Notes under the pieces: generated by a model
Seen by the model: the letters and a program-made list of their open reading frames with translations, nothing else
Databases searched by the model: none
Told to the model about the DNA's origin: nothing
Position numbers and translations under genes: made by a program
Shown: one piece after another, positions 1,640 to 26,717 of the stretch
Layout of the letters: each line of letters begins with the position of its first letter
How positions within the stretch are numbered: position 1 is the stretch's first letter
DNA from: Nostoc punctiforme PCC 73102
Lineage (GTDB): Bacteria > Cyanobacteriota > Cyanobacteriia > Cyanobacteriales > Nostocaceae
Reading direction: 5' to 3'
Length of the DNA: 32,000 bases
NCBI RefSeq assembly: GCF_000020025.1
Contig: NC_010628.1
Location: 2,310,001-2,342,000, forward strand

Positions 1640-3290
1640 ACCGGATTGCTATATCCCTCTTTCAAGAAACACTTGACGTAAAGCTTATATAGAAAGGGTT
1701 TGATAAAATGAAGCTTCCTCCTTATCTTGGGATTTGGGGACAAGTTGAAGACCAAAAGCTTGCGCTTTCTTCTGGAGATTTTTGAGGATCAAATCCTGGT
1801 ATTTTTGCTCATAGTATTCCATACCAGGATCAGAATATCGTCCAGCAGTTGTCCAAATTTGGTAGAACAAACGAGCCAGGTTGTGTGCAGTAGCAGTTAT
1901 TGCTTTGGGTGCGCCCAAGCGAGAACGTAACCGACGATAAAATGCACCTAGAGCAGAACGGCTGTGAGTCAGAGAAAAAGCCGTTATGCGAAAAGCATTT
2001 GCAGCACGATTGACAACAGTACGAGTTTGAGAGCTTTTGACCTTACCGCCAGTCACTTTTTGACCAGGACATAAACCCAACCAAGAGGTGAAGTGTTTAA
2101 CGCTGGGAAAACGTTTCGGGTTTAATCCCACCTCAGATAAAATAGTCTGAACAGTTAAAGCATCAAGACCATCAATCAGTGTAAAATCTACTCCTGCCAT
2201 CCGAAAAAGATATTTATGCAAATCAAAATCGGGGTGATTTGCAGTCGGTTTTTTTCTGCATTTTCTTCCTGTTGTTGGCGGTTCATCTAAAGTTTTAGGT
2301 TCATGCATATGCTAAACATTTTTCAATTTCAGCGTCAACAGCAATAATCTGTTGTTGATAAATCTCATACAGTGTTAATTCTTGCTGGAGGACAAATAAA
2401 TGTTCACGACGGTAATCACCAGTTAAAGATGCAGCAATATCTGCTGTGCTGCTTTTAATATGTGGGTCTTTGAGGGATGCTAAAACTTGTGGGTCTTGTT
2501 CACCAGCAACGATTGCTTTTATAATCTTCATTCCGGTCAAACCAGTCACATCGCTGATGACTTTGTGGAGATGTAAATTCATCTGGATGAGTGCCTTTTG
2601 CATCCGTTGTATATGGGCACTAGCACTCTTGATTAAGGTATCTCGTTGACGAATATAACTGCGTAGCACACAAACTTGGTCTTCTGGGCGAAAAGAACCA
2701 GACAGTAGTCCATATGTATGTAACTTTTGTAACCACTGGCAATCTAACACATCTGTTTTGCGCCCAGGGACTGTTTTAACGTGATGAGCATTGACTAATT
2801 TGACCTCAAAACCCTTGGCTTCTAATACCTGAAACACTGGAATCCAATAAACTCCTGTGGCTTCCATTGCCACGGTATTTATTCGGCATTCCTTTAACCA
2901 ATCGGCCATTGCAATTAAATCAGGGGTAAAACACCCAAATCGGCGAACATTTTTATCTGCCCTATCAGGAGGGACACAAACCCAATGTTCTCCACTACCA
3001 AGGTCTATTCCGGCTGCGTTCTGGTTAATTTCTTCTAAAGTGGATGAAGGTTTTACCACAGGTACAGGCTGGTTCTTCTCTTGATTTGCTGGCAATTTCA
3101 TTGCTGCAACCCTGTTGTAGTTATTATGGATAGTCCTGACGAAAGGGATGTACTCATAGATAATCTTTCAAACGGGATAGGAAACTTTATCCTTCACCAA
3201 TGTCATAGGCATAATGCCCCAGAACCATGCTCCTAATCAGGCTCAACACACTATTGTGGGTTCGGTTTTAACTGTCAGGATAATTATTAA
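1640..3290 (-). mobile_element. IS110-family insertion sequence (boundaries approximate)
   Basis: Contains a DEDD-type transposase N-terminal domain and a Transposase_20-type C-terminal domain on the minus strand, plus about 190 nt of non-coding leader (3102-3290). IS110 elements lack classical terminal inverted repeats, so the ends cannot be fixed from a single copy. Confidence 0.6.
1685..3101 (-). pseudogene. IS110-family transposase split by a frameshift into ORFs 2301-3101 (N-terminal DEDD domain) and 1685-2308 (C-terminal Transposase_20/HhH domain)
   Basis: The N-terminal ORF reads AGIDLGSGEHWVCV...VAMEATGVYWIPVFQ...NAHHVK, as in the IS110 DEDD domain. The C-terminal ORF reads DFDLHKYLFRMAGVDFTLIDGLDALTVQTILSEVG...LGLCPGQKVTGGKV, as in Transposase_20. 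The two frames overlap in GCATATGCATGA at 2301-2312. Intact family members are a single ORF. Confidence 0.75.
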
Positions 3291-3377
3291 TATACCTGTT
3301 GATTAGTCGCCTCAAAATAGTTTCTTTCATTCATAGCGGGTGGCAGTGCCGCCTGTGCGGTTGCTCCTAAGAAACAA

Positions 3378-3405
3378 GGCAGGAGGCAGGAGGCAGAAGG
3401 CAGAA
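3378..3405. repeat. STRR-like heptamer run (GGCAGGA/GGCAGAA x4)
   Basis: Direct reading gives ggcagga ggcagga ggcagaa ggcagaa. Confidence 0.8.
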
Positions 3406-3700
3406 GGGAAGAGGATTTGACTTGTTTCTTCCATCCATAACGGAAGCCAGCGCGTCCGTAAACAGCTTCTGTCACTTGTCGGAATAAGAAAGTAATAAAT
3501 AAACTAAACTATCCAGAAGCATAAGAGGGTTTAAATTGATTCATTGCACTAATTAAATGATTAAATCCCAGGAATAAATGGGAATTAGGAAAAATATCTC
3601 TGGGTCAGAACTTAAGTAAGTCGGCAGGAAAATTTACAAGTATGTAACGAAAATTTCACCAATTCAATCTGACTCTTTTTAGCACCCATCTTAACCCAAT

Positions 3701-3789
3701 ACTTGTCGGGTTTTGGGGAAAAGGGAAAGAGGAAAGGGGAAAGAAAAAACCTTTAACCTTTAACCTTTTCCCCAAACCCAATGCCGAGT
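3701..3789. repeat. Hairpin-forming short dispersed repeat (ACTTGTCGGGTTTTGGGGAAAAGG...CCTTTTCCCCAAACCCA)
   Basis: The arms TTGGGGAAAAGG and CCTTTTCCCCAA are complementary. A second copy of the left arm sits at 24362-24409. Confidence 0.75.
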
Positions 3790-3847
3790 TAAAAATGGTT
3801 AACCGAGCAGTATTGCATATTAACCTGTCGGGACTTAATTTAATAGA

Positions 3848-3874
3848 GCGATGCCTGCGGCGGGCTACGCCTAC
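3848..3874 (-). repeat. Short dispersed repeat family GCGTAGGCGTAGCCCGCC-N-AGGCATCGC (reverse copy)
   Basis: gcgatgcctgcggcgggctacgcctac is the reverse complement of the copies at 4674-4702 and 11552-11580. Confidence 0.8.
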
Positions 3875-4673
3875 AGTTCGCTTTCTGTGGTAAGTAAGTT
3901 GGTAGAAATAAACCAAATTATGTTACGAAACGTAAATAGTCTTAAAGTCCTACTAATAAACAATGACAAAGGACAAATGACAGTCCTTGCCAGTTAGCTT
4001 TAATTGCGCCAATCTACTTATCCCTCATTTGTCACTTTTACCAGAGAATAATCTAGGAGGCTTACAGCATAAGGCTTTTACCAAAAAAGCTTGATTTTGG
4101 TCATTCTATTAGAAAATCAACGCTCAAACGCTTGTTATATATAAAGTTGAAAATTTGCCTCAGATTTTTCTTTTCTCAGAGTGACAGAACAGGGTTAATA
4201 GCCATAACAAATGACAGCCTTTTCCTGTCGGAGACGCTACGCGAACGCCAGTTACCTTTAATTGCGCTGACCTACTTACTTGGAGTCATGGCCTTTAAGT
4301 TGATAATTCAGCGCTTGTGGGTTGATAATAAGGAGGCTTTGACAATCAAAGTTAAGTTCATGGGAGATAAGACAATTGCAATTTTTACCTTAATCGATAC
4401 CTTAAAATCTACTGTTTACGATCTAGATATCGCTATTTTAGAGGAAGCTTTACGCTGTAGCCGTGAAATAAATCAATCTCAAGTTGGGGCTTGGTTATTG
4501 AGCCAGTTTCAGCAACAGGATGATTATTAATTTTTATTAAATTACTTTTGTGTTGGTAGATACTGCTTACTGAGCAGTATTACTTAATGATAAAGATGAT
4601 TTACATAGTAAAACCGTACAACTTTCCCAAGCTGTACAGCCTGCTTAAATTGTTATAAATGAAATGGGACTTT

Positions 4674-4702
4674 GCGTAGGCGTAGCCCGCCGTAGGCATC
4701 GC
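4674..4702 (+). repeat. Short dispersed repeat family GCGTAGGCGTAGCCCGCCGTAGGCATCGC
   Basis: Near-identical to 11552-11580. A degenerate copy lies at 31416-31444. Confidence 0.8.
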
Positions 4703-4954
4703 ATCTACGTCGTTATGAAAGAAAAGTTACCGTTTTTGATTGGTTTTAGTTCCAATGAGCCAAAGCTTTACCCAAGATGGGAGTCAAGCATTTGTTAAAA
4801 AAATGTTAGAAGTGGAGAGGTTAGAGAGAATGACGTAGAAGGTAAGTGCATTAAAGTACTCCTGAAAGCCAGTCCTTGTTCAATAAGTTTTGTGTAGAAT
4901 TTGGTAGTGAGGTCATTTACTTGATTCTCAATTGCAACAATCCAGGTTTGATTT

Positions 4955-7531
4955 ATGAGTCAGTCTTTTTCTCAAAACCAAGGAAGGCGAAATCGTCAAC
5001 AAAAGCTGTGGCCACAAAAATGGAGTTTAAAGACTAAAGCAATAGTTTGGGCACTAAGCATCAGTGTACTTCCTGTGTTTGCAATTGGGATAGCTACTTA
5101 CTTCTATGGGATTAATTTAAGTACTAAACAAATACCGCAAGTCAGACAGGAGAGGGCGAAAAGTTCAACAGAAACTGAAGCTCTACAGAGCCAACTGTCA
5201 CTCTTGTTAACTGGTATGGGGGTAACGGCAATCTTAGCAGGTGCGATCGCTGTTTTTGTGACTAATCGAGCTATTAGTCGAGTTAGCAACGTTGCTGCAA
5301 CTTCTAATGATATCAAAAATCGGCTACGTCCAGACAGTGAGTTTACTCAAACTTTCATTGCTAACGAAGATGAATTAGTGATGTTAGAGAGAAACATCAG
5401 CTTATTCACAGAACTGCTTTCAGTTTTGGTACAAGAGAAAGAAACCGAAGCTGATTATTCTCAACTATTAACGAAAATTACCCGTTGGGTTAGAGAATCA
5501 TTTAATCAAGAAGATGTTCTCAAAACCACCTCAGAAGAGATTCGTAAAGCTTTAAGCATTGACCGTGTAGCTATCTTCTGCTTCAATTCCCACTCTAATG
5601 GAACCTTTATAGTCGAATCAGTAGCACCTGGTTTACCGAAAATACTAGGGGTTACAGTCTCCGATCCTGGCTTCGAGGTAGGGTATATAGAAAAATACCG
5701 GAATGGTTGCACTCGTGCTATTGATGATATCTATCAAGCCGATCTCAGTGATGATGATATTGAGTTACTCCAGCAATTTGCTGTCAAATCTAATTTAGTA
5801 GCACCTATTTTCAAAGGCAAACAGCTATTCGGTTTATTGGTTGCACATCAGTGTTCTAGAGTTCGCTTTTGGCAGCAATCTGAGATTGATTTATTCGCTC
5901 AGATAGCTATGCAGGTGGAATTTGCCCTTGACTACGCCAAGCTTTTAGAAGAGGTAGACACCAAAGCAGATAAAGCTCAGATATTTATAGAAATTACCCG
6001 CAGTATTCGCGAATCGCTCAACGAAGAGGATGTCCTGAAAACCACTGTAGAAGAGGTTCGTAAAGTACTTAGTACAGATCGAGTAATGGTTTATACCTTT
6101 AATGCTAATTGGTCTGGAACTGTGATTGCCGAATCAGTGATTCCAGGTTATCCAAAAGTTTTGCGGTCTGAAATCCAAGACCCATGTTTCGGTCAGGGTT
6201 ATGTAGAAAAGTATCAGTCTGGTCGTGTTGCAACCACAAACAACATTTACCAAGCTGGTTTGGCTGATTGTCACATTAGCCTGCTCGAATCCTTTGGTGT
6301 GAAAGCAAATTTGGTTGCACCCATTCTCAAAGATGAACAGCTATTTGGCTTATTAATTGCCCATCAATGCTCCAGACCGCGTGATTGGCAACAGCCTGAA
6401 ATTGATTTATTTGCTCAGATAGCTATACAAATAGGATTTGCTCTTGACCATGCAAGGCTCCTGCAACGCATTGAGGCTGAAGGTATGCAAAGTCAGTTGC
6501 TGGCGGATACTATCGGCAGCATACGTCAATCGCTCAACGAAGAAGATGTCCTGAAAACCACTGTCGAAGAGGTTCGCAAAGTACTTAGTACAGATCGAGT
6601 GATGATTTATAGCTTTAATGCTAATTGGTCTGGAACTGTAATTGCCGAATCAGTTGTTCTCACGTATCCAAAAGTTTTGCGGGCTGAAATTGAAGATCCA
6701 TGTTTTGGTCAAGGCTATGTAAAAGAGTATCAGTCTGGTCGCGTTCTGGCAATAAATAACATTTACGAAGTCGGTTTAGCTGATTGTCACATTAACTTAC
6801 TCGAATCCTTTGGTGTGAAAGCAAATTTGGTAGCTCCCATTCTCAAGGATGAGCAGTTGTTTGGTTTATTAATTGCACATCAATGCTCCAGACCTCGTGA
6901 CTGGAAACAATCTGAGATCGATTTATTTGCCCAGATAGCAATGCAAGTAGGATTTGCTCTCGACCATGCAAGACTCCTGCAACGAATCGAGGCTGAAGCT
7001 ATGCGAAGTCAATTATTGGTGGATATTACGCGCAGCATTCACCAATCGCTCAAAGAAGAGGATGTCCTGAAAACCACTGTGGAAGAGGTTCGGAAGGCAT
7101 TGAGTACTGACCGAGTACTAGTTTATAGCTTTTATGCTAATTGGTTCGGAATTATCATTGCCGAATCAGTGGTTCCAGGTTATCCCAAAGTTTTGCGGTC
7201 TAAAATCCACGATTCCTGTTTTACTCAAGGCTATATAGAAAAGTACCAGTCTGGTCGTGTTGTCGCAATCAACAATATTTATGAGTCAGGTTTGGCTGAT
7301 TGTCACATTAAATTGCTCGAATCCTTTGCTGTGAAGGCAAATTTAGTCGCACCCATTATTAAAGATGATCAGTTATTTGGCTTGTTAATTGCACATCAGT
7401 GTTCTGGACCCCGTGATTGGCAACAGCCAGAGATTGATTTATTTACCCAAATAGCTATGCAAGTAGGATTTACTCTCGATTATGCTAGGCTCCTGCAAGC
7501 GTATCAAGCTACTGAAGCTAGCTCTAATTAA
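4955..7531 (+). CDS. Membrane-anchored multi-GAF photosensor: 2 TM helices plus linker, one degenerate GAF and three DXCF-type cyanobacteriochrome GAF domains; no recognisable output domain
   Basis: 858-aa ORF with two N-terminal hydrophobic helices (AIVWALSISVLPVFAIGIATYFYGI and LLLTGMGVTAILAGAIAVFV). GAF2-4 each carry D(P/S)CF, and exactly 28 residues later the canonical bilin Cys in LADCHI..LLESF.VKANLVAPI. That spacing is the same as I recall for the TePixJ-type DXCF CBCRs. The ORF stops about 15 aa after the last GAF. Confidence 0.85.
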   Translation: MSQSFSQNQGRRNRQQKLWPQKWSLKTKAIVWALSISVLPVFAIGIATYFYGINLSTKQIPQVRQERAKSSTETEALQSQLSLLLTGMGVTAILAGAIAVFVTNRAISRVSNVAATSNDIKNRLRPDSEFTQTFIANEDELVMLERNISLFTELLSVLVQEKETEADYSQLLTKITRWVRESFNQEDVLKTTSEEIRKALSIDRVAIFCFNSHSNGTFIVESVAPGLPKILGVTVSDPGFEVGYIEKYRNGCTRAIDDIYQADLSDDDIELLQQFAVKSNLVAPIFKGKQLFGLLVAHQCSRVRFWQQSEIDLFAQIAMQVEFALDYAKLLEEVDTKADKAQIFIEITRSIRESLNEEDVLKTTVEEVRKVLSTDRVMVYTFNANWSGTVIAESVIPGYPKVLRSEIQDPCFGQGYVEKYQSGRVATTNNIYQAGLADCHISLLESFGVKANLVAPILKDEQLFGLLIAHQCSRPRDWQQPEIDLFAQIAIQIGFALDHARLLQRIEAEGMQSQLLADTIGSIRQSLNEEDVLKTTVEEVRKVLSTDRVMIYSFNANWSGTVIAESVVLTYPKVLRAEIEDPCFGQGYVKEYQSGRVLAINNIYEVGLADCHINLLESFGVKANLVAPILKDEQLFGLLIAHQCSRPRDWKQSEIDLFAQIAMQVGFALDHARLLQRIEAEAMRSQLLVDITRSIHQSLKEEDVLKTTVEEVRKALSTDRVLVYSFYANWFGIIIAESVVPGYPKVLRSKIHDSCFTQGYIEKYQSGRVVAINNIYESGLADCHIKLLESFAVKANLVAPIIKDDQLFGLLIAHQCSGPRDWQQPEIDLFTQIAMQVGFTLDYARLLQAYQATEASSN
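5477..7531 (+). repeat. Four tandem 516-bp coding units (one GAF domain each); units 2-4 are highly similar at the DNA level
   Basis: The anchor string ATC(G/A)...GAAGA(G/A)GATGT recurs at 5497, 6013, 6529 and 7045, an exact 516-nt period. I estimate units 2-4 at about 80-90% identical by eye (not computed). Confidence 0.85.
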
Positions 7532-7589
7532 TAGTGAAAAGAAAGATTTTCTTCTTAAGGCAATTCATGTAGACGCATACTCTTAGGTC

Positions 7590-7658
7590 GAAGCAAGCTA
7601 CGCGGAGCGTATCGTACAGAAGCAGCTACTTTATAAGAAACGCTCCGCGTATAGTAGC
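7590..7658. repeat. Hairpin short dispersed repeat (GAAGCAAGCTACGCGGAGCGT.TCGTA.AGAAG), probably acting as a bidirectional terminator
   Basis: CTACGCGGAGCGT (7598-7610) pairs with ACGCTCCGCGTA (7640-7651). The same 33-mer family occurs at 26640-26672. It lies between two convergent genes. Confidence 0.7.
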
Positions 7659-8468
7659 CTATTTATGAATAGTCTCGCGCTCTTTATTAGCAGGTTCCTT
7701 CTCTTTGAATAAGTCAGCTGCTGTTAGAAGTAACTCCCTTAAGGTTTGTTTGATTTGGCGCTCTTTTCTGGCCAGAGATGTACCAGCTTCACCTAGTTTG
7801 TCTTCTAGCTGCGATCGCTTTTGTTCTACCTGTATAGCTACAGACTCTGCTTGGGGACGAGCCTTATCATACCAGTGTTTAGCCTCATCTAGATAATCTT
7901 GAACCTCCATAGAACGTCCGCCATAGCGTGCAGCCATATTAGCTCTGACAATAGCTAGCTGTGCTTGCAATTGCGCGTAACGTTTCTTTAATAACCCGAC
8001 TTCTTCACTATCTTTAATGGCATTGACAGCAGAATCAATTGCAGTTTTGGTACTAGCTGGTTTTTCTTTACCCGTCTCTTCAATCTCTGCCAAAATTACA
8101 TCAACCTCTTGCTGGAGTTGTTCTTCTTCACCATCTAGTTGAGCTTGGAGCCGCTTTATATCTGTCTGAGTTTTAGCAATAGATTCGTGTCTTTGAGTAT
8201 TAATTCCTTCTAGCGCTCCTTCAATAGAAGCTGTCACTTCATCTTTAAGTTCGCTACCTTTTTCTTGAAAGTTTTCAATGACAGCAGAAACAGCATCTCT
8301 AACCAGGCTACGAAGTTCACTAGAACCTTGTTTAAACTCAGAGCCTACTTGAGAAACTGCGGATTTAACAATTTCTCGAATCCGATCGGTTCTTAATTGT
8401 CCTGTTTCTTTAGCTTGTTGCAAGTCTGCTTGAATTTTTTCTTTGATATTGTTGTTAGGCATTTTCAA
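7659..8468 (-). CDS. Coiled-coil / amphipathic-helix protein (conserved hypothetical)
   Basis: 269-aa ORF that is Glu/Lys/Gln-rich with heptad-like periodicity and no hydrophobic segments. No competing ORF of comparable length. Confidence 0.6.
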   Translation of the reverse strand: MKMPNNNIKEKIQADLQQAKETGQLRTDRIREIVKSAVSQVGSEFKQGSSELRSLVRDAVSAVIENFQEKGSELKDEVTASIEGALEGINTQRHESIAKTQTDIKRLQAQLDGEEEQLQQEVDVILAEIEETGKEKPASTKTAIDSAVNAIKDSEEVGLLKKRYAQLQAQLAIVRANMAARYGGRSMEVQDYLDEAKHWYDKARPQAESVAIQVEQKRSQLEDKLGEAGTSLARKERQIKQTLRELLLTAADLFKEKEPANKERETIHK

Positions 8469-8786: not shown

Positions 8787-9011
8787 ATGTGGCGAGTAAA
8801 TATTACTTGTTCAAGTGATGCCTGGAAGCTCTATGGTACTGATTTTAAAGCGATCGCCCAGAAGTATCAAGGGGAATTAATTGGTTCCAAAAAAATGCCA
8901 GATGGTACGCGCATCATGTCTTATAAAATTGAGGATGTTAGCGATGCAGAAGCCTTTCAAGAAGATTGTGCAAATTTTGCAGGGTTTTCAACTGACTTTG
9001 AATCCCTGTAG
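8787..9011 (+). CDS. Small hypothetical protein (74 aa)
   Basis: Clean ATG ORF in an otherwise empty intergenic space, with non-repetitive, protein-like composition. Confidence 0.45.
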   Translation: MWRVNITCSSDAWKLYGTDFKAIAQKYQGELIGSKKMPDGTRIMSYKIEDVSDAEAFQEDCANFAGFSTDFESL

Positions 9012-9056
9012 TAATTGATTCTAATACAACCAGTATTCAAAATCAGGAGACGTTGA

Positions 9057-9392
9057 TTGAAAAAACTACTCACATTAGTATTAGTAACATTTCTGCTATT
9101 GTTCAGCGCTTTTACTATGCCTGCTATGGCAGCAGATATAGTTAACGGTGAACAAATATTTAGTCTTCATTGTGCTGGTTGTCATATTAACGGCAGCAAC
9201 ATAGTTAGGCGGGGTAAAAATCTCAAAAAGCAAGCACTGAAAAAGTATGGTATGGATTCAATAGAGGCAGTTACATCTATAGTTACCAATGGTAAAAATA
9301 ATATGTCAGCCTACAAAGATCGCCTTACTGAACAGCAAATTACAGATGTTGCTGCTTACGTTCTCGAACAAGCTGAAAAAGACTGGCGTTAG
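9057..9392 (+). CDS. petJ: Cytochrome c6-like mono-haem c-type cytochrome (c6B/c6C-like group)
   Basis: Signal peptide ending AMA|ADI, haem motif CAGCH, and distal Met in NGKNNMSAY. The overall pattern ADxxxGxxIFxxxCAxCHxxGxNxxxxxKxLxKxAL...NGKxxMxA...VAAYVLxQA matches cytochrome c6. TTG start at 9057 with AGGAGA 8 nt upstream. Confidence 0.8.
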   Translation: MKKLLTLVLVTFLLLFSAFTMPAMAADIVNGEQIFSLHCAGCHINGSNIVRRGKNLKKQALKKYGMDSIEAVTSIVTNGKNNMSAYKDRLTEQQITDVAAYVLEQAEKDWR

Positions 9393-9400
9393 AAAGTTAC

Positions 9401-9446
9401 GAGTTAGGAGAGACGCGATTAATCGCGTCTTTACAAGAGTTAGGAG
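9401..9446. repeat. Perfect 20-nt palindrome AGACGCGATTAATCGCGTCT flanked by direct GAGTTAGGAG repeats
   Basis: The palindrome is at 9411-9430 and the direct decamers are at 9401-9410 and 9437-9446. The repeat starts 9 nt after the cytochrome stop, so it may act as a terminator, but no clear T-tract follows. Confidence 0.7.
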
Positions 9447-9573
9447 TTTTAACTCTAGTCGTCATAAATCATTCATAATAAAGTAGAAAAGTTAAAAAGC
9501 TGTAAAAAACCGCTTTTCAACTCACTAATTATTAAATCTGCTCACTTCCAACTTCTAACTCCAAAAATCGAAA

Positions 9574-10593
9574 ATGAACTTACCCACAGCGAGCCGTCTC
9601 CAATTCACTCCTGATTTGAACATCTGTCGCATATTAAATGGTATGTGGCAAGTCTCCGGCGCACACGGACGGATCAATCCCCAAGCTGCCATTGAGACTA
9701 TGTTCAAATATTTAGATGCAGGCTTTACCACTTGGGATTTAGCAGATCATTATGGCCCTGCTGAGGACTTTATTGGTGAGTTTCGCTGTCAACTAATTGA
9801 TACTCGTGGTAAAGATGCTTTATCTAAGGTGCAAGCGTTTACAAAATGGGTGCCTCGTCCAGGTAAAATGACGAAGAAATTGGTCGAGGAAAACATTGAT
9901 ATTTCCCTGAGAAGAATGAATGTGGAATCGTTAGATTTGATGCAATTCCACTGGTGGGAATATCAGGATAAAAATTACTTAGATGCCCTAAAATATATGG
10001 CAGAACTCCAGACTGAGGGTAAAATTAAGCATCTAGGTTTAACTAATTTTGACACGGAAAATTTGAAGCTGATTACTGAAGCAGGTATCAAAATTGTTTC
10101 TAATCAAGTGCAATTTTCCCTTATTGACCGCCGTCCCGAAGTTAATATGGCAGAATTTTGTCAGCAGCATGACATCAAGCTTTTTACTTACGGTACACTG
10201 TGCGGCAGCTTGTTATCAGAAAACTATTTGGGTAAACCGGAACCGCGAGGATCTGATCTGTCCACTGCTAGTTTGAAAAAATATAAAAATATGATTGATG
10301 CTTGGGGTGGTTGGCAATTATTTCAAGAATTGCTAGCTATTTTGAAGGAAATTGCTAATAAGCATAAAGTAAGTATCTCAAACGTAGCAGTGCGTTACAT
10401 TTTAGATCAGCCAACCGTGGGTGGTGTGATAGTTGGTGCCAGACTTGGTGTATCTGAACATATAGAAGATAACGCCAAAGTATTTAGTTTTAGTTTAGAT
10501 GCTGACGATCGCGATCGCATCAGTGCCGTATCTCGACAGTCACGAGATTTGTATCAGCTAATCGGCGATTGTGGCGACGAGTATCGGCGATAA
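9574..10593 (+). CDS. Aldo/keto reductase family oxidoreductase
   Basis: 339-aa ORF with the (alpha/beta)8 AKR pattern: FTTWDLADHYGPAE (catalytic Asp/Tyr region), ...IKHLGLTNF, ...NQVQFSLIDRRPE. Confidence 0.8.
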   Translation: MNLPTASRLQFTPDLNICRILNGMWQVSGAHGRINPQAAIETMFKYLDAGFTTWDLADHYGPAEDFIGEFRCQLIDTRGKDALSKVQAFTKWVPRPGKMTKKLVEENIDISLRRMNVESLDLMQFHWWEYQDKNYLDALKYMAELQTEGKIKHLGLTNFDTENLKLITEAGIKIVSNQVQFSLIDRRPEVNMAEFCQQHDIKLFTYGTLCGSLLSENYLGKPEPRGSDLSTASLKKYKNMIDAWGGWQLFQELLAILKEIANKHKVSISNVAVRYILDQPTVGGVIVGARLGVSEHIEDNAKVFSFSLDADDRDRISAVSRQSRDLYQLIGDCGDEYRR

Positions 10594-10647
10594 TTATCGG
10601 GAAACAGGTAATAATAGTATCTTCATGCTGATGAATTAAAGAAGATC

Positions 10648-11622
10648 GTGACCACTACACTGCACTGGCAAGAACGGGTTGGGAATCAAAGAGATTGGGT
10701 TTGGCGGGGCTGGCAAACCCGCTATACTTACATTCGCCCTAGCCAAAATAACCACAAAACACAACCTCTGATTCTGTTACATGGCTTTGGCGCTTCCATT
10801 GGTCATTGGCGACATAATCTAGAAGTGTTGGCTGAACATCACACAGTTTACGCCATTGATATGCTGGGTTTTGGCGCTTCTGAAAAAGCCGCAGCTAATT
10901 ACAGCATTGACTTGTGGGTTGAGCAGGTTTACGATTTTTGGAAAACTTTTATCCGTCAACCGGCAATTTTAGTAGGCAATTCCAACGGTTCACTGATTTC
11001 CATGGCCGCCGCCGCCGCTCATCCCGACATGGTGCTGGGTATAGTGATGATGAGTTTACCCGACCCTTCCCTAGAACAAGAAGCCATTCCTCCCATGCTG
11101 CGGCCCCTTGTCAGAGCAATTAAAAATGTGGTCGCTTCGCCATTAGTTCTTAAACCTGTGTTTAACTTCGTGCGCCGTCCAGGGGTGCTGCGTCGCTGGG
11201 CTAGTCTTGCCTACGCTAACCCAGAGGCGATTACCGATGAACTGATAGAAATTTTAGCTGGGCCTCCCCAAGACAGAGGTTCAGCGAGGGCTTTTAGTGC
11301 TTTGTTCAAAGCTGCGATCGGAATTAACTTTAGTCCCAGCGTTAAGACAGTATTACCAACCTTAACAATTCCGATGTTATTAATTTGGGGACAAAAGGAT
11401 CGGTTTGTTCCCCCAGCCCTTGCTAACCGATTTGCCCAATACAACCAAAAATTGGAAGTACTGAATTTAGCAGACGTGGGCCATTGTCCCCATGATGAAT
11501 GTCCTGAGCAAGTCAACCAAGCTATTGTAGATTGGATTGAGAGATGGGTTAGCGTAGGCGTAGCCCGCCACAGGCATCGCCAACCCCCTTACACTTTCCC
11601 AGCTTTGCCGGAAATTGTCTAA
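10648..11622 (+). CDS. Alpha/beta-fold hydrolase
   Basis: LILLHGFGASIGHWRHN (oxyanion region), nucleophile elbow GNSNGS, C-terminal VGHCPHDE (catalytic His). GTG start. The last ~24 codons run through a dispersed repeat. Confidence 0.8.
   Translation: MTTTLHWQERVGNQRDWVWRGWQTRYTYIRPSQNNHKTQPLILLHGFGASIGHWRHNLEVLAEHHTVYAIDMLGFGASEKAAANYSIDLWVEQVYDFWKTFIRQPAILVGNSNGSLISMAAAAAHPDMVLGIVMMSLPDPSLEQEAIPPMLRPLVRAIKNVVASPLVLKPVFNFVRRPGVLRRWASLAYANPEAITDELIEILAGPPQDRGSARAFSALFKAAIGINFSPSVKTVLPTLTIPMLLIWGQKDRFVPPALANRFAQYNQKLEVLNLADVGHCPHDECPEQVNQAIVDWIERWVSVGVARHRHRQPPYTFPALPEIV
11552..11580 (+). repeat. Short dispersed repeat GCGTAGGCGTAGCCCGCCACAGGCATCGC embedded in the 3' end of the hydrolase ORF
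   Basis: Same family as 4674-4702 and 3848-3874. Here it is translated as VGVARHRHR. Confidence 0.8.
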
Positions 11623-11767
11623 GAGGGCCTTTGTTTATACCACGCATTCATCAGCTAGCGTTGTTGGCGACTCTTTGAAGAGATAGATATGAGGCTTTTG
11701 TTATGCAATGGGAGCGATCGCGCCAGCCAATACCTTTGCGACCATTGAATTAGGAATTACTTAACAC

Positions 11768-12136
11768 CTAGCCAATCGTGGCTTGGTTAGTGTCAACATC
11801 TGTAGTGCCATTCACAGAACGAGCTACAGAAATCATCTTATTAAGAATTTCTTGACTGGGAACTTTGCCTTTCAATACAACAGTGCTACCCGTTTGAGCA
11901 ACCCAAAGGGTATTAACATCATCAAGTTGGGGATCTTCATCAAATGCCAAAGCAACCCGCTTTGCCAACCCACTTTGGTCATATTCACCACTTAATCCCA
12001 AACGTTCTGGGGGTATGGATTGAGTAGCAGTAGGAGCAGCATTAGTACTAGGAGTTTGTGCTATTGACTGCGGAGTAGGATTTACTTCTGCATTTTGAGG
12101 TTTTTCCATTCCAAATAGTCTTTGTAACCAACCCAT
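11768..12136 (-). CDS. BON-domain protein
   Basis: 122-aa ORF with a low-complexity N-terminal half, then ...VAQTGSTVVLKGKVPSQEILNKMISVARSVNGTTDVD, which fits the BON pattern (V.L.G.V.s......a...a....GV..V.n). Confidence 0.65.
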   Translation of the reverse strand: MGWLQRLFGMEKPQNAEVNPTPQSIAQTPSTNAAPTATQSIPPERLGLSGEYDQSGLAKRVALAFDEDPQLDDVNTLWVAQTGSTVVLKGKVPSQEILNKMISVARSVNGTTDVDTNQATIG

Positions 12137-12485
12137 AAAAATTTTTCTCCTGAATTAGAGGCTTACTGAGTGGAGTATAAAAGCTTTACGAAAATGCCGC
12201 ATCTACCAATGAAAAGATATCCATTCCATAAAATTCCTCCTTGCAGGATAATTTCTGTCCAATTTTTTATTTCTAGAGAATGCAATGAGTGCAGCTATTG
12301 AGTTTACAATAAAAGGTTGCACTGATAATTAGTGCAGTAGTGCGCTACAACAGAAATCAACATACATTTGACAAAATGTCAAGAGTTTGTAACTCAATGA
12401 ATTTTGACTTTTGAATGAGTGAATTCTGCAAAGCGGTACTAGTTTCTGCGTTCCTCAAATCCTGTTCTAGCCTCTGTTGGCGAAG

Positions 12486-13004
12486 ATGAAACATACCCTT
12501 TCAGTTCTCGTAGAAGATGAGGCGGGTGTTCTTTCCCGCATTTCTGGTTTATTCGCCCGTCGTGGTTTTAATATTGAAAGCCTTGCTGTTGGTCCTGCTG
12601 AACAGGGAGGAGTCTCCCGAATTACAATGGTTGTACCTGGTGACGATCGCGTGATCGAGCAACTCACCAAGCAACTATACAAGTTAGTTAATGTCCTCAA
12701 GGTACAGGATATTACCGAAACTCCTTGCGTCGAACGAGAATTGATGCTTTTGAAGGTGAATGCTAGTAGCAGCAATCGCTCAGAAGTGATTGAACTGTCT
12801 CAGATTTTCCGGGCGCGAGTCGTGGATGTCGCAGAAGATTCTCTCACCTTAGAAGTTGTGGGAGATCCAGGTAAAATGGTAGCGATCGTGCAGGTGTTGC
12901 AAAAATTTGGTTTAAGAGAAATCGCCCGCACTGGCAAAATTGCCCTGACTCGTGAGTCAGGCGTGAATACCGAGTTACTCAAATCTTTGGAAGCAAAAGT
13001 TTAG
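12486..13004 (+). CDS. ilvH: Acetolactate synthase small (regulatory) subunit
   Basis: [50 protein letters not shown] is the ACT domain typical of IlvH/IlvN, followed by the C-terminal AHAS small-subunit domain. I prefer the ATG at 12486 to the track's TTG at 12477. Confidence 0.9.
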
Positions 13005-13042
13005 TTAGGAATTTAATCAGCATATAAATCAAAGACAGCAGA

Positions 13043-13075
13043 AGTCATAGTGGCAATTGTTACTATGACTTTTGC
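13043..13075 (+). terminator. Intrinsic terminator of ilvH
   Basis: AGTCATAGT (13043-13051) and ACTATGACT (13062-13070) form a 9-bp perfect stem followed by TTTT. Confidence 0.7.
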
Positions 13076-13381
13076 ACTTTAAAATATTCTTAACCGAGTA
13101 GTATTGCAATATTTACTTAATCAAATTCTCAAATGAATTTTGGGACAATAATTTCTCAATCTTTTCATATATCTAATTTCAGACTTATAAATTTATTTAA
13201 ATTGAATTTTCTCGTTTAAATTTGCACTTTTATTTTGAAAATATGGAGATTGAATTCGTTAATTATTAATCTTGATTGCAATTTAGATAGATACCTTTAC
13301 TTTGCTCTCAAGAAGTATTGATATTGAAGTTTTCTACACTTAGTGCAATGCTATCTAAGTACAAATTTATACTATAAAAAT

Positions 13382-13501
13382 CTAAGTAGCTTGGCACAAT
13401 CAAATAAAACTATGTAAAGAAAAATGAACTAGCCTAAAACCCTTGTATCTATTGCCTGTTGCCTGATCCCAACAACAATTATTTACGCCCACTTACTTAT
13501 G
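13382..13501 (+). repeat. MITE-like ~120-bp element with terminal inverted repeats (CTAAGTA.CTTGG ... CCACTTACTTA)
   Basis: A second copy in the same orientation lies at 30158-30275. The shared core is AAACTAG.CTAAAACCCTT.TA.CTATTG.CT.TTGCCT.ATCCCAAC.ACAATTATTTACGC.CACTTACTT. Confidence 0.75.
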
Positions 13502-13790
13502 CAGGCTGAGGCAATGCGAACGAAAGAACAATGGAAAATCGAGTTTTTTTGACTGGTATACACTTTAGCCGATACATCAGGGAGATAATTTAACTTGTGT
13601 GTACACCGTAGTCAGAGCAGGAAGAGGATGGAAGCGGGGTTTTGCAGATAAGAATGAAAAATCGGCTTCTCCATAAGTAGCTTGCGAAATTCATCATTAC
13701 TTTGGCTAAAGATTGGATGTTTTCCTATATATTCAAGTAGATGTAATTTTTTACGTATAAATGTAATTTATACTTATTAGTACCTCTGTT

Positions 13791-14459
13791 GTGGATATAG
13801 TATCAAAATTAACATCAAATCAAAATTTAGTTTCCCAAGGAATTAACAATATGAACTCACCTGAAGAATACATCAATAATAATTCATCAAATATAGAAAA
13901 ACAGAGTCCGAATGCAAACATAAATGAGTTGCAATTTAGTAGTAACAGCATGAGCGAAGGTAGAAACTTAGATAAAGTTAGAGAAATTCTTTTTGGCAAT
14001 CAAACACGGGATACAGAAAGAAAGTTTAGCCGTCTAGAAGAACGTCTAATTAAAGAATTGGGCAACGTGCGAGATGAAACAAGAAAACGTCTAGATGCTT
14101 TAGAAATTTATATTAAACAAGAAATTGATTCTTTAACGCAGCGCCTAAAAAATGAGCAATTAGATCGTGACTCTCAGGTAAAAGCAGTTGCTGAAGAAAG
14201 TAAAAGCATAATTATATCTTTAGAAAAAAAGATTACTCAATTTGATGAACAAGCGACTAATAGTCAACGAGAGTTGCGCGAGCAGATTCTCAACCAATCT
14301 AAAAGCTTACAAGATGAGATACAACAAAAATCTCAGGAAATAGTAGCTTTAATAGAACGGGAAGCTCAAGAACTTCGTAGAGACAAAACGGATCGTTCAA
14401 ATCTGGCTGCTATGTTTACAGAGTTAGCTAGCCGGCTGAATACAGAAAATAAGTCTTGA
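13791..14459 (+). CDS. Coiled-coil protein (first gene of the GTPase locus)
   Basis: 222-aa ORF with a GTG start (in-frame ATG alternative at 13851). N-terminal Asn/Ser-rich region, then LDKVREILFGNQTRDTERKFSRLEERL and about 140 aa of heptad-rich E/K/Q/L sequence. Confidence 0.6.
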   Translation: MDIVSKLTSNQNLVSQGINNMNSPEEYINNNSSNIEKQSPNANINELQFSSNSMSEGRNLDKVREILFGNQTRDTERKFSRLEERLIKELGNVRDETRKRLDALEIYIKQEIDSLTQRLKNEQLDRDSQVKAVAEESKSIIISLEKKITQFDEQATNSQRELREQILNQSKSLQDEIQQKSQEIVALIEREAQELRRDKTDRSNLAAMFTELASRLNTENKS

Positions 14460-14688
14460 GCTAAAGAATTGTTTGAAAATTTATCACTATTAATTTTGGC
14501 ACTCTTATATTCTCTATACCCCTATTAAAAAGGAGAACTTAAAATAATTTAAAAGTTTTAAGACAAGAATACTTTCAAAATATCCTCTACTCTAAGGTTA
14601 AAAGATTTTTACCTATCGGCGCATCTCTCCTGCTTACAACAGAATGCTTGCTACTTGATGATAAATTGTGAATTGGGGAATTTTGGTA

Positions 14689-16473
14689 ATGAGTGACTAT
14701 TCAAATAATCCAATACCGAAAGCATCCTCTGAAGGTTTGAACAGCAACAACCAAACCTTCGAATTTAATGATGAACTAACTATACTCCGTAGTTTGCTTC
14801 TGGATATTGAGCCGACTAAACTCAAAACACTTTATGAGCGATTAGAAAACCCTCAAATTTTACCAGAAGATATTAGCAAGATGCTTCCAGAAGCTGTAAT
14901 CTTGCGGTCAAAACAAGATAAACAACTTGGCGAAGTAATGGTATCAACTGTGGAAAATGCCATAGAAGTTTCTGTTAAACAAGACCACAATGTGCTTGCA
15001 GATGCATTATTTCCAGTTATTGGGCCAGCTACTCGCAAGGCGATTTCCACGGCTCTTGAGGAAATGATGCAATCGATGAATCAAACTCTGGAACATAGTT
15101 TGTCTCCACAGAGCTTTAAATGGAGACTAGAAGCGCAACGCACAGGAAAATCATTTGCGGAAATTGTGCTGTTACGGACGCTAGTTTATCGAGTAGAACA
15201 AATATTTTTGATTCATAAAAAATCGGGATTATTGCTGCAACATTTAGTAACAACGCAGGTAACAGTTCAAGATCCAGATTTAGTAGCTGCGATGTTGACA
15301 GCTATCCAAGATTTTGTCAAAGATTCCTTTAGGGTACAAAAAGTAGATGGACTAAAAAGTTTACGCTTTGGAGAAGTAATGATTTGGATTGAAGAGGGGC
15401 CACAAGCTTTAGTAGCAGCGATGATTCGAGGGAATCCTCCCCAAGAATTAAGGTTAGTTTTGCAAGAAGCGATAGAAAAAATTCACCTGAAGCTAGGTAG
15501 AGAAATTCAAAATTTTACAGGGGAAACAGCAGCATTTCAGTCCAGCCTGCCTTATTTAGAAGCTTGTCTGGTAGTTCAGTATAAATCTGCTGCTAAAAAA
15601 AATTATACCTATGCCTGGGCTTTCTTGGGTGCGATCGCGATCGCTTGTGGGACTTGGGGCTTTTTTACTATTAGAGAACAACTCCGTTGGCAAGCATATC
15701 TCCAAAAACTCAACTCTCTGCCAGGAATTGTTGTGATTAACACCAAGCAAGCTTTTGGCAAATATTTTATTTCGGGAATGCGCGATCCCTTAGCAGTAGA
15801 TCCTAATACACTAATACAACAAACAAATCTTAATCCCAAAATAGTAATTAGCCAGTGGCAACCTTATCTGTCTTTGGAGCCACAATTTGCTGCCAAAAGA
15901 GTTGAAAAGTTGTTGCATCCTCCCCAAACTGTATCATTAATGGTTGATAACAACGGTATTCTTAATGTAACTGGTTATGCACCCCGTAAATGGATTTTAG
16001 AAGCACGGAAATTATGGACATTTATTCCTGGTATTACCCAATTTCAAGACCAAAAACTCGTAGAAATAGAACTTAGCGAGTTACGGTTATCTAAAATAAA
16101 GATAGAAAAAGAAATATTTTTTTTTACAGAAGGAACAACTGAGTTGATGCCTGGTGAAATTGACAAATTGCCTAATTTGTTTTTATCAATCCGCAAATGT
16201 TTGAATATTGCCAAGTATTTAGGTAAAAATGTGCAAATTCAAATAATTGGACATACTAATAGTACTGGAACAGAACGAAGAAATAGACCACTCAGTCAAG
16301 CGCGCGCTAATAAAATTCTATCTTATTTAATATCCCAAGGAATCAAGATAAACCAATTTCAAGCACTAACTGTAAGTTCTAGCCTAACTTCCCAGCCAGA
16401 ATTAACATCAGAATCTAAAGAATTTAATCGGAGAGTCTCTTTCAAAGTATTAATAAATAATATCTCTAAATAA
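14689..16473 (+). CDS. Single-pass membrane protein with a cytoplasmic Roadblock/LC7-like segment and a C-terminal OmpA/MotB-type peptidoglycan-binding domain
   Basis: ATG at 14689 (the track's GTG at 14668 is an alternative). TM helix YTYAWAFLGAIAIACGTWGFFTI. OmpA-like motifs VQIQIIGHTNSTGTERRNRPLSQARANKILSYLISQGI and FNRRVSFKV. The cytoplasmic part contains VYRVEQIFLIHKKSGLLLQHL...DPDLVAAMLTAIQDFVKDSF...FGEVMIWIEEGPQALVAAMIRG. Confidence 0.8.
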   Translation: MSDYSNNPIPKASSEGLNSNNQTFEFNDELTILRSLLLDIEPTKLKTLYERLENPQILPEDISKMLPEAVILRSKQDKQLGEVMVSTVENAIEVSVKQDHNVLADALFPVIGPATRKAISTALEEMMQSMNQTLEHSLSPQSFKWRLEAQRTGKSFAEIVLLRTLVYRVEQIFLIHKKSGLLLQHLVTTQVTVQDPDLVAAMLTAIQDFVKDSFRVQKVDGLKSLRFGEVMIWIEEGPQALVAAMIRGNPPQELRLVLQEAIEKIHLKLGREIQNFTGETAAFQSSLPYLEACLVVQYKSAAKKNYTYAWAFLGAIAIACGTWGFFTIREQLRWQAYLQKLNSLPGIVVINTKQAFGKYFISGMRDPLAVDPNTLIQQTNLNPKIVISQWQPYLSLEPQFAAKRVEKLLHPPQTVSLMVDNNGILNVTGYAPRKWILEARKLWTFIPGITQFQDQKLVEIELSELRLSKIKIEKEIFFFTEGTTELMPGEIDKLPNLFLSIRKCLNIAKYLGKNVQIQIIGHTNSTGTERRNRPLSQARANKILSYLISQGIKINQFQALTVSSSLTSQPELTSESKEFNRRVSFKVLINNISK

Positions 16474-16487
16474 AATTAGATCAATTT

Positions 16488-16988
16488 ATGGTTATCCAGA
16501 AGAAAATTTGTATGATAGGTGCATTTGCTACAGGTAAAACTAGTTTAGTAGCAATGTTTGTCCACAGCATTTTTTCTGAGAAATATCATACTACTGTGGG
16601 TGTAAAAATTGATAAAAAAGCTATAGAGATTCAAGATAAAAAAATAAACCTTATCCTTTGGGATATCTATGGAGAAGATGAGTTTCAAGAATTACAAATG
16701 TCTTATTTACGAGGTTCTGCTGGTTATTTATTAGTTGTAGATGGTACCAGACATAATACTTTACAAAAAGCTTTTGACTTACAAATAAAAATAGAAGATG
16801 CTATTGGTCAAGTTCCCTTTATTTTAGTCATAAATAAATTGGATATAACGGATGAATGGGAAATTGAATCTGCTGAGATAGATGATGTTACACAAAATGG
16901 TTGGACTGTGATTAAAACAAGTGCCAAACATAGTATTGGTGTAGAAGAAGCTTTTCAAACTCTCGCTAAAAAAATATTGGATTGCTAA
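16488..16988 (+). CDS. Ras/Rab-like small GTPase
   Basis: All five G motifs are present in order: G1 GAFATGKTS, G2 YHTTVGV, G3 WDIYGED, G4 NKLD, G5 TSAK followed by GVEEAF. It starts 14 nt after the upstream stop, and its TAA abuts the next ATG. Confidence 0.85.
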   Translation: MVIQKKICMIGAFATGKTSLVAMFVHSIFSEKYHTTVGVKIDKKAIEIQDKKINLILWDIYGEDEFQELQMSYLRGSAGYLLVVDGTRHNTLQKAFDLQIKIEDAIGQVPFILVINKLDITDEWEIESAEIDDVTQNGWTVIKTSAKHSIGVEEAFQTLAKKILDC

Positions 16989-17390
16989 ATGTTGGATGTC
17001 CCTGTTTTTGTAATTGCCTATATTCTAAATTTGTTAACAGCAGAGTCTTCTCTTGGCTATCTGTTGGTTAATAAAGATGGTAGCCTCTTGACTTGGGGTG
17101 GGAAATTGGCAGCTTATGGAATTACAAACCTCCGTAAAGGCAAAAATGCAAAAGAGCAAGTTGTCTTTCTAGAAGGGTTACTACCATTAGATGATACTTC
17201 CATATTTTTACCATTCATCCAAACAGAGTGTGGCAGTTGTGTAGATGTTCATATATTACCGACGAAAGAAGCAGATTGGGTATTGCTGTTAGATAGTAGC
17301 TGTGATAGAGATTACCTCTTTCCTATTCAGCAAAAAGCAAATGATTTCAGATTATTATACGAAAAATTAAATAGAAAGTTAAATTACTAA
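16989..17390 (+). CDS. Small protein paralogous to the N-terminal sensor domain of the adjacent histidine kinase
   Basis: 133-aa ORF whose ATG directly follows the GTPase stop. By-eye alignment to residues ~1-140 of the kinase: SLGYLLVNKDGSLLTWGG vs ALNILVLEKIDAGLFKIIG, VVFLEGLL vs FSFLNNFL, DWVLLLDSS..QQKANDFRLLYEKL vs KFLLIEALE..LQKAREYKLIYQQL. Confidence 0.6.
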   Translation: MLDVPVFVIAYILNLLTAESSLGYLLVNKDGSLLTWGGKLAAYGITNLRKGKNAKEQVVFLEGLLPLDDTSIFLPFIQTECGSCVDVHILPTKEADWVLLLDSSCDRDYLFPIQQKANDFRLLYEKLNRKLNY

Positions 17391-17429
17391 CCTAAAGTCA
17401 AAATTAATTGATTGTATCAGGTTTAACTC

Positions 17430-18554: not shown

Positions 18555-18600
18555 GAAGTGTCCCGCTTAATAAATTCATTACCGCTAATTGCGTGGCAAG

Positions 18601-26525: not shown

Positions 26526-26639
26526 TTTGGAGTTTATAAATAAGAAGTCAGAATCCAGAATTAAGAATGCAATTTGTAAAATATTTCAATTATACATTCA
26601 TACCCCAGCGATGCACTGAGCTTGTCGTACCCCTCCGGG

Positions 26640-26717
26640 GAAGCAAGCTACGCGGAGCGTCTCGTAGAGAAGTGTCGTACAGAATAATTCTGTTAGCGGT
26701 AGCGGGGCGTTTAGCCC
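26640..26717. repeat. Two abutting dispersed repeats in the arsM-PiT spacer
   Basis: 26640-26672 (GAAGCAAGCTACGCGGAGCGTCTCGTAGAGAAG) belongs to the same family as 7590-7622. 26692-26717 is the reverse complement of 22023-22048. Confidence 0.8.

Follow-up and report, generated by a model that had tools for sequence, protein, structure and literature searches.

What can a light receptor do once the domain that passed its signal on is gone? The question is raised by one gene in a 32,000-nucleotide stretch of the Nostoc punctiforme PCC 73102 genome (contig NC_010628.1, positions 2,310,001 to 2,342,000 of the forward strand; this whole stretch is called the window below), which encodes a predicted membrane-anchored array of four GAF domains and, by every search we made in the window, no output domain. 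Discussions of cyanobacteriochromes (CBCRs) nearly always treat them as the input part of a fusion with a kinase, a c-di-GMP enzyme or a methyl-accepting (MCP) signalling domain. A preliminary description of the locus, made from its letters alone, had offered two explanations: the gene could encode a phototaxis receptor that has been truncated, or a light sensor that genuinely lacks an output. At the level of sequence both turn out to hold, as the protein descends from an MCP-bearing receptor and its truncation is old and has been maintained. With a little more confidence than doubt, we consider the gene product to be a functional photosensor that is anchored in the membrane, consists of sensory modules only and would signal via protein contacts.

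Composition of the GAF array

The open reading frame (ORF) spans positions 4955 to 7531 on the forward strand and encodes 858 residues, starting at the ATG that is the first possible start after an upstream in-frame stop. Pfam recognized four GAF domains in the product (E = 4e-84) and nothing more above threshold. GAF2, GAF3 and GAF4 each carry the cysteine pair of the two-cysteine (DXCF) class. The DXCF cysteines are Cys411 (codon 6185-6187), Cys583 (6701-6703) and Cys755 (7217-7219), and the cysteines of the CH motif are Cys439 (6269-6271), Cys611 (6785-6787) and Cys783 (7301-7303), so that the two are spaced by 28 residues in each domain. All six codons and the spacing agree with the preliminary description. 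The three domains form in-register 516-nucleotide (172-residue) units that are 78-86% identical in DNA sequence and contain no indels, which argues that the periodicity reflects tandem duplication and not chance. GAF1 is about 63% identical to these units.

To place the domains among known photoreceptors, we compared them with solved structures. In a phmmer search of the PDB, TePixJ (3VV4, 4GLQ and 2M7U) was among the best solved relatives, all of which are CBCR GAF domains (about 4e-42). Pairwise alignments with the TePixJ GAF domain ran without gaps over 145-152 residues at 45% (GAF2), 44% (GAF3) and 44% (GAF4) identity, and the DXCF (DPCF, DPCF and DSCF) and CH motifs of the three domains fall exactly in register with DPCF and "ECH" of TePixJ. 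GAF1 is 37% identical to the same domain and has neither the CH nor the DXCF feature. An AlphaFold2 model built on 37 sequences (mean predicted local distance difference test score, pLDDT, of 71; 75-90 in the GAF domains) contains four GAF folds that long helices connect (H308-353, H480-525 and H652-696), and its last helix (H824-857) reaches the C-terminus. Foldseek superposed a model GAF on TePixJ 4GLQ with a template modelling (TM) score of 0.92 and a root-mean-square deviation of 1.3 Å, and the tandem GAF arrangement resembles the GAF-PHY pairs in the PDB (TM score about 0.65). Judged by motifs and predicted fold, GAF2, GAF3 and GAF4 are ordinary members of the DXCF (two-cysteine) CBCR subfamily.

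Ahead of the array, two hydrophobic segments were called by Kyte-Doolittle hydropathy only, and the loop between them (residues 51-81) is only about 30 residues long, which leaves no room for a periplasmic sensor domain. The basic segment before them, residues 1-27, has a mean majority-residue frequency of 0.92 across 68 orthologs. From this basic N-terminus and the positive-inside rule, residues 1-27 are presumed to be cytoplasmic (N-in), as are all of the GAF domains. The segment that follows occupies the position of a HAMP domain, and we found no HAMP match there with Pfam at E<=5 or with an ortholog profile searched against the PDB. By eye, the MCP-bearing relatives described below show a HAMP-like motif, "RAIRPIL...G.DEL..L..NI", whose proline is lost in the Nostoc clade. 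Heptad periodicity was uninformative for the inter-GAF helices, the exception being the linker helix at residues 138-180. The N-terminus of two predicted transmembrane segments and a linker that had been proposed at the outset is retained here on hydropathy grounds, and "linker" is the apt word for a region in which HAMP was undetected.

Next to the array itself, we found no trace of an effector. The frame closes 10 residues past the conserved end of GAF4, with three consecutive in-frame stops, TAA, TAG and TGA, at 7529-7537. When the MCP signalling domains of three relatives were searched against the window by tblastn, only noise was returned (best E about 1), and neither the ORF nor the 127-nucleotide spacer behind it nor the 32-kb window held an MCP, kinase or GGDEF domain or the remnant of one. 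Together with the Pfam result, this bears out the earlier claim that no output domain follows GAF4.

Ancestry and maintenance of the gene

A protein search recovered over 90 Nostoc and Desmonostoc clusters that are 81-100% identical, each of them 852-862 residues long and composed of GAF domains only. Other cyanobacterial matches, at 41-63% identity, are 1000-1400 residues long, and nearly all carry PF00015 (MCPsignal). We fetched 80 genomic loci for an ortholog comparison and found a full-length ORF of 852-872 residues intact in 68 of them, from Nostoc and Desmonostoc. In these 68 orthologs the stop lies 6-15 residues (mode 10) past a conserved "ARLLQA", and no frameshifts or internal stops occurred in the orthologs compared. 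By tblastn, no MCP remnant was found within 6 kb downstream of the Nostoc-clade orthologs. The preliminary description had proposed looking among orthologs for a methyl-accepting domain: the 68 orthologs likewise have none, and relatives at 59-63% identity carry PF00015.

The substitution pattern points the same way. Nei-Gojobori estimates of the ratio of nonsynonymous to synonymous substitution rates (dN/dS) for the whole gene, comparing the window with orthologs, were 0.14-0.18 at dS of 0.10-0.57, with group means of 0.18-0.19. By region, each GAF domain gave 0.07-0.24 (GAF1 0.10-0.22; GAF4 0.07-0.14), the transmembrane segments and linker 0.25-0.39, and the last 10 residues about 0.5-1. Because 68 orthologs are intact at dN/dS of 0.14-0.19, we take the protein to be functional and its architecture to be old. 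The comparison has thus shown an intact 858-residue protein under purifying selection across at least 68 species. Shortened arrays occur in two loci, L071 (a draft isolate assembly; 735 residues) and L074 (a metagenome-assembled genome; 681 residues), and may be either real unequal recombination or collapsed repeats. When 1.84 billion proteins were clustered at 50%, the Nostoc cluster was the only representative matching end to end; judged from these searches, the GAF-only architecture is one lineage-specific orthogroup.

Where this architecture came from can be read at its C-terminus. The end of the protein, "...DYARLLQAYQATEASSN*", aligns with "...DHARLL(D/N)Q(V/I)(E/D)QAYQ(T/A)AEA..." of the relatives P0100, P0102 and P0109, in which the aligned segment is the connector between the last GAF domain and the MCP domain (placed by Pfam on P0102); P0098, from Desmonostoc vinosum, could also be aligned. 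The PF00015-bearing relatives are 59-63% identical over the full length. In a neighbour-joining tree of the non-repeated part (residues 1-345), the truncated Nostoc clade is monophyletic and its sister is P0098 (968 residues). Next out is the L079 protein of Nostoc sp. 106C (990 residues), with three GAF domains and MCPsignal, followed by P0100, P0109 and P0102, all with MCP domains. P0098 has only the first part of an MCP domain in frame, about 110 residues past the junction. At its locus, 139 residues of the P0102 C-terminal query align by tblastn, and no further MCP remnant was recognisable downstream of the P0098 stop. This locus is L082 (= L069), positions 10001-12907, in the metagenome-assembled genome of Desmonostoc vinosum HA7617-LM4.

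Junction homology, nesting within the tree and the partial MCP domain of P0098 together show, as a reconstruction from aligned proteins, that the protein descends from a PixJ-like GAF-array receptor with two transmembrane segments, a linker, a GAF array and an MCP domain. By the same reconstruction, the stem lineage of the Nostoc/Desmonostoc clade was shown to be where the MCP domain disappeared. P0098 may be an intermediate in the loss of output or an independent truncation; the MCP loss is either stepwise or happened twice.

The sister lineage offers further observations. In L079, a Hpt-CheW-REC gene for a CheA-like protein comes next on the same strand (9007-10725, +); about 190 residues between its Hpt and CheW domains are unassigned, and a HATPase domain was not detected in the protein. 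The truncated genes have no Hpt-CheW-REC neighbour. In two other genomes, the whole sister locus is fragmented or has lost the GAF array (L087, 8776-10400; L086, 9019-9975). The MCP-bearing sister system seems to be decaying as well.

Conserved sensors and candidate modes of action

In GAF2 and GAF4 the DXCF cysteine, the CH cysteine and the following histidine are invariant in 68/68 orthologs. GAF3 is more variable, keeping Cys583 in 46/68 and Cys611 in 45/68. Its replacement pairs are usually Y/Y or S/S, and the histidine often becomes Q or E. In the gene tree the losses fall in two clades, one of them a monophyletic group of 17 with Y/Y and the other a basal group of 6 with S/S, Y/S or C/S; because these clades are separate, GAF3 must have been inactivated independently at least twice. 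The GAF3 dN/dS is 0.13 in the cysteine-less lineages versus 0.11 in the others. The corresponding positions of GAF1 are never cysteine in the 68 orthologs, and GAF1 of the outgroup protein P0102 still has DPCF and CH. This pattern of conservation suggests that GAF2 and GAF4 are indispensable photosensors, that GAF3 is optional, with its motif intact here, and that GAF1 is a permanent relay or structural module.

DXCF CBCRs such as TePixJ and SyPixJ1 provide the basis for a proposed photocycle. Each competent GAF domain would bind phycocyanobilin covalently at the CH cysteine, and the DXCF cysteine would add reversibly to C10, so that the dark state would absorb in the violet/blue and the photoproduct in the green/teal. 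The light-driven change would then run along the long inter-GAF helices to the C-terminus, with GAF1, and GAF3 where it is cysteine-less, acting as structural or relay modules. Beyond photosensing, the protein would act through protein contacts or as a decoy. Contacts are reached by elimination, because there is no enzymatic or MCP output, and candidate surfaces for them are the helices in and next to the membrane, the spine of the GAF array and the conserved helix stub at the C-terminus. Most likely, the target would be another membrane photoreceptor or a taxis complex of the hormogonium motility system. The protein would then be a light-dependent modulator and not the transmitter of a signal of its own, a version that we prefer because all the dimer-forming parts of the MCP ancestor have been kept. 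A more specific evolutionary proposal, that the sensor-only CBCR of Nostoc and Desmonostoc gained a new route after MCP loss, either as a light-gated dominant-negative that binds and regulates other membrane photoreceptor or taxis complexes according to light colour, or by binding a new partner through its helix stub and juxtamembrane region, is one that we put forward only tentatively.

Several results weigh against a photosensor that signals by contacts. Both cysteines of GAF3 are gone in 22 species and a single one in a further species, and because this happened repeatedly, not every sensor can be indispensable. No che, pix or ptx genes are adjacent to the gene at 4955-7531. The neighbours seen in the window recur in only 5/80 loci, those of the closest genomes, so synteny is unconserved, and clustering of all flanking ORFs revealed no signalling gene recurring beside the Nostoc orthologs and indicated no partner. 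The commonest neighbour elsewhere is a convergent 223-residue ORF, taken from its sequence motifs to be a purN-type formyltransferase. The AlphaFold2 model is unreliable at residues 1-160, which makes the N-terminal module, one of the proposed contact surfaces, low-confidence. Finally, the MCP search in this genome covered the 32-kb window, and an MCP-bearing paralogue able to pair with the protein may exist elsewhere in it.

In one sub-case of contact signalling, the protein would be a light-gated dominant-negative or decoy subunit. It would form heterodimers or mixed assemblies with full-length CBCR-MCP receptors of the PtxD or PixJ type through its transmembrane segments, linker and GAF helices, and would remove receptors from the taxis array or retune them. 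Descent from such a receptor, retention of the whole dimer-forming N-terminus and GAF spine, a truncation point exactly at the GAF-to-MCP connector and the lack of enzymatic output (by Pfam and by tblastn of the window) all fit this idea. However, a search with residues 1-180 returned ortholog fragments only and no close paralogue of the transmembrane and linker region, though its coverage was clearly incomplete; other species are the source of the nearest relatives with an MCP domain, and no co-localised receptor gene was seen at the loci. We regard a decoy role as rather improbable.

Conservation of the cysteines bears on a light-independent role, in which the protein would be a membrane scaffold or a binder of bilins or small molecules (for example in bilin buffering or sensing) and any photochemistry would be incidental. 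GAF1 is cysteine-less, and GAF3 has lost both cysteines and the histidine at least twice, yet evolves at a dN/dS of 0.13; as cysteine-less GAF domains are still constrained, the fold must be selected there for something besides photochemistry. In GAF2 and GAF4, however, all 68/68 orthologs keep the complete cysteine and histidine sets unchanged although dS reaches about 0.57, which is hard to explain unless the two-cysteine chemistry matters. We therefore think it unlikely that the protein works independently of light.

A split receptor, in which a separately encoded MCP domain docks on the C-terminal helix stub to make a two-piece PixJ-like receptor, would restore a conventional output. Stand-alone MCP-domain ORFs do exist in the sister lineage, P0136 (312 residues) and P0137 (178 residues), but the copies of the MCP-bearing sister locus that contain them are visibly decaying. 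Both ORFs lie beside a CheW-REC gene; one follows 2.8 kb without any called gene, and the other sits among gene fragments. Neither is in a genome shown to carry the truncated gene, MCP-like sequence is lacking within 6 kb of the Nostoc-clade orthologs and in the window, and the tail on which such a domain would dock is variable past "AYQ..E". A two-piece receptor is thus very improbable.

That the gene is a pseudogene relic, or that an assembly collapse of its 516-nucleotide repeats hides the true 3' end, is scarcely credible and already contradicted: the repeats are 78-86% identical, arrays are shortened in L071 and L074 and a strain-specific frameshifted IS110 lies 1.9 kb upstream, but the length and stop region are the same in 68 independent assemblies, complete genomes included, dN/dS is 0.14-0.19, neither frameshifts nor internal stops occur, and three in-frame stops and then a convergent gene follow the array. 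For this strain in particular, an assembly collapse or a recent nonsense mutation is excluded by the 68 orthologs of the same architecture and the low dN/dS.

The locus and its place among cyanobacteriochromes

The features of the gene and its 3' flank are collected in Table 1.

Table 1. Coordinates of the four-GAF gene, its predicted protein segments and its 3' flank in the window.
Feature	Position	Strand	Basis
Complete coding sequence, four-GAF membrane-anchored protein (predicted) without output domain	4955..7531	+	ORF listing; Pfam; orthologs
Basic N-terminal segment, residues 1-27	4955..5035	+	Rich in R and K
Predicted transmembrane segment 1, residues 28-50	5036..5104	+	Kyte-Doolittle 19-residue windows up to 2.3
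Predicted transmembrane segment 2, residues 82-104	5198..5266	+	Kyte-Doolittle windows up to 2.2
Helical linker, residues 105-175, at HAMP position	5267..5479	+	AlphaFold2 helices H94-123 and H138-180
GAF1, residues 176-345, without either bilin-binding Cys	5480..5989	+	DPGF and DDD at aligned positions
GAF2, residues 346-517, DXCF-type	5990..6505	+	DPCF Cys411; CH Cys439-His440
GAF3, residues 518-689, DXCF-type	6506..7021	+	DPCF Cys583; CH Cys611-His612
GAF4, residues 690-848, DXCF-type	7022..7498	+	DSCF Cys755; CH Cys783-His784
C-terminal stub, residues 849-858 (AYQATEASSN), then three stops	7499..7537	+	Junction alignment, sequence
Hairpin in 127-nucleotide convergent spacer, part of short dispersed repeat	7599..7651	.	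18-nucleotide arms, 89% complementary

Behind the gene, the short spacer with a hairpin repeat before a convergent gene was found as first described. The hairpin folds as RNA at -34 kcal/mol (z = -1.96), a simple terminator scan found no T-run terminator signature at 7599-7651, and the element is possibly a bidirectional terminator. One hairpin arm is a dispersed repeat of about 35 nucleotides, "GAAGCAAGCTACGCGGAGCGT.TCGTA.AGAAG", at 7590-7625, with a copy 19 kb off at 26636-26670. No such matches are expected by chance, and the repeat probably belongs to the small mobile repeats found in Nostoc genomes. Rfam gave no matches in the window. The convergent gene itself (7659-8468, -) encodes a 269-residue coiled-coil protein with helical apolipoprotein-like repeats (a weak Pfam match, below threshold) and adjoins the GAF gene in the five closest genomes only.

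Among the neighbours in the window are an IS110 remnant, this coiled-coil protein, a 74-residue ORF, petJ (cytochrome c6), an aldo-keto reductase and an alpha/beta hydrolase; ortholog loci elsewhere have varied neighbours of housekeeping type. The IS110-family transposase (1685-3101, -) consists of two overlapping ORFs (1685-2308 and 2301-3101), is probably frameshifted and, being absent from all 80 related loci, represents a strain-specific insertion. The 1.85-kb stretch between it and the GAF ORF (3101-4955) holds no convincing gene. It contains a heptamer repeat (AAGGCAG x4.6 at 3376-3407) and a TTG-initiated ORF (4132-4530, 132 residues) that is 73% conserved in five syntenic genomes, versus 95-99% for neighbouring genes, and is therefore probably non-coding. 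A short ORF at 4755, resembling an upstream ORF and beginning "MSQSF", was considered as a duplicated start; it aligns weakly with the true start and was treated as chance. Farther downstream, an island of low GC (guanine plus cytosine) content at about 13000-18600 (0.30-0.35, versus about 0.41 elsewhere) carries genes for an OmpA-like protein of 601 residues, a small GTPase (166 residues), a 133-residue ORF and a 374-residue histidine kinase, and may be a horizontally acquired signalling cassette. The ORF at 24533-25522 (-) strongly matches ArsS, a radical SAM protein of arsenosugar biosynthesis (E = 3.5e-125, which passes the curated cut-off).

How does the protein compare with characterized photoreceptors? 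PixJ proteins are encoded in pix taxis operons and end in an MCP signalling domain. Like TePixJ and SyPixJ1 (PixJ1), which are blue/green DXCF phototaxis receptors, the N. punctiforme protein has two predicted transmembrane segments, a linker and a cysteine-less GAF domain ahead of the putative bilin-binding ones. In contrast to them, it has no MCP domain or nearby taxis genes, and it has three tandem DXCF GAF domains where PixJ has one. A second point of comparison is PtxD, whose GAF domains are mostly of other CBCR lineages. It comes from the same organism and is also a membrane-anchored array of several CBCR GAF domains, photoactive and not. Unlike the protein studied here, PtxD carries an MCP domain and is encoded in the che-like ptx locus; the likeness drawn here is one of described architecture. 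PtxD (NpF2164) is described as a multi-GAF CBCR-MCP protein needed for hormogonium phototaxis in N. punctiforme (Campbell et al. 2015, as cited in PMC7332365).

The closest MCP-bearing relatives are the L079 protein (990 residues) and P0100, P0102 and P0109 (968-1139 residues), which share 57-63% identity over the transmembrane segments, linker and GAF domains, the junction "QAYQ.AEA" and DXCF GAF arrays, but keep PF00015; L079 has three GAF domains, and GAF1 of P0102 has both cysteines. P0098 of D. vinosum is closer still (72% identity, the same four-GAF array and three DXCF GAF domains) and differs in retaining the N-terminal part of the MCP domain. A purely functional analogy can be drawn with the effector-less BLUF protein PixD (Slr1694), which works with PixE, and with short LOV proteins. 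These too are sensor-only and rely on light-dependent protein association, whereas their folds and chromophores are unrelated and the proteins are small and soluble.

Automatic annotations call the protein "GAF domain-containing protein" or "PixJ". Judged by its domains, the whole protein lacks the defining PixJ/PtxD feature, the MCP domain, and should not be called PixJ. Our literature search found nothing on this protein, its evolution or output-less CBCRs, in a library that leaves key N. punctiforme CBCR papers outside. Rockwell, Martin and Lagarias reportedly studied, in 2012, DXCF domains from "NpF1883", an N. punctiforme protein with four GAF domains; that work is not used as evidence here. 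The isolated GAF domains may thus already have been characterised spectroscopically.

The protein is a variant within a well-known family of photoreceptors, and the genome that carries it has been much studied. What sets it apart is that a PixJ-type receptor without output has been kept under purifying selection in 68 species, with two of its sensors frozen and one repeatedly inactivated. Three points are of particular interest: the persistence of a taxis-receptor descendant that consists of sensors only, a sister protein that preserves part of the MCP domain, and the coordinated, repeated loss of both cysteines in one GAF domain. If the lineage did gain a new route after MCP loss, it would represent a mode of CBCR signalling not yet described, in which multi-GAF arrays act as integrators without catalytic output. 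As N. punctiforme is genetically tractable, it could be used to test whether CBCR arrays signal purely by contacts and which of their GAF domains matter.

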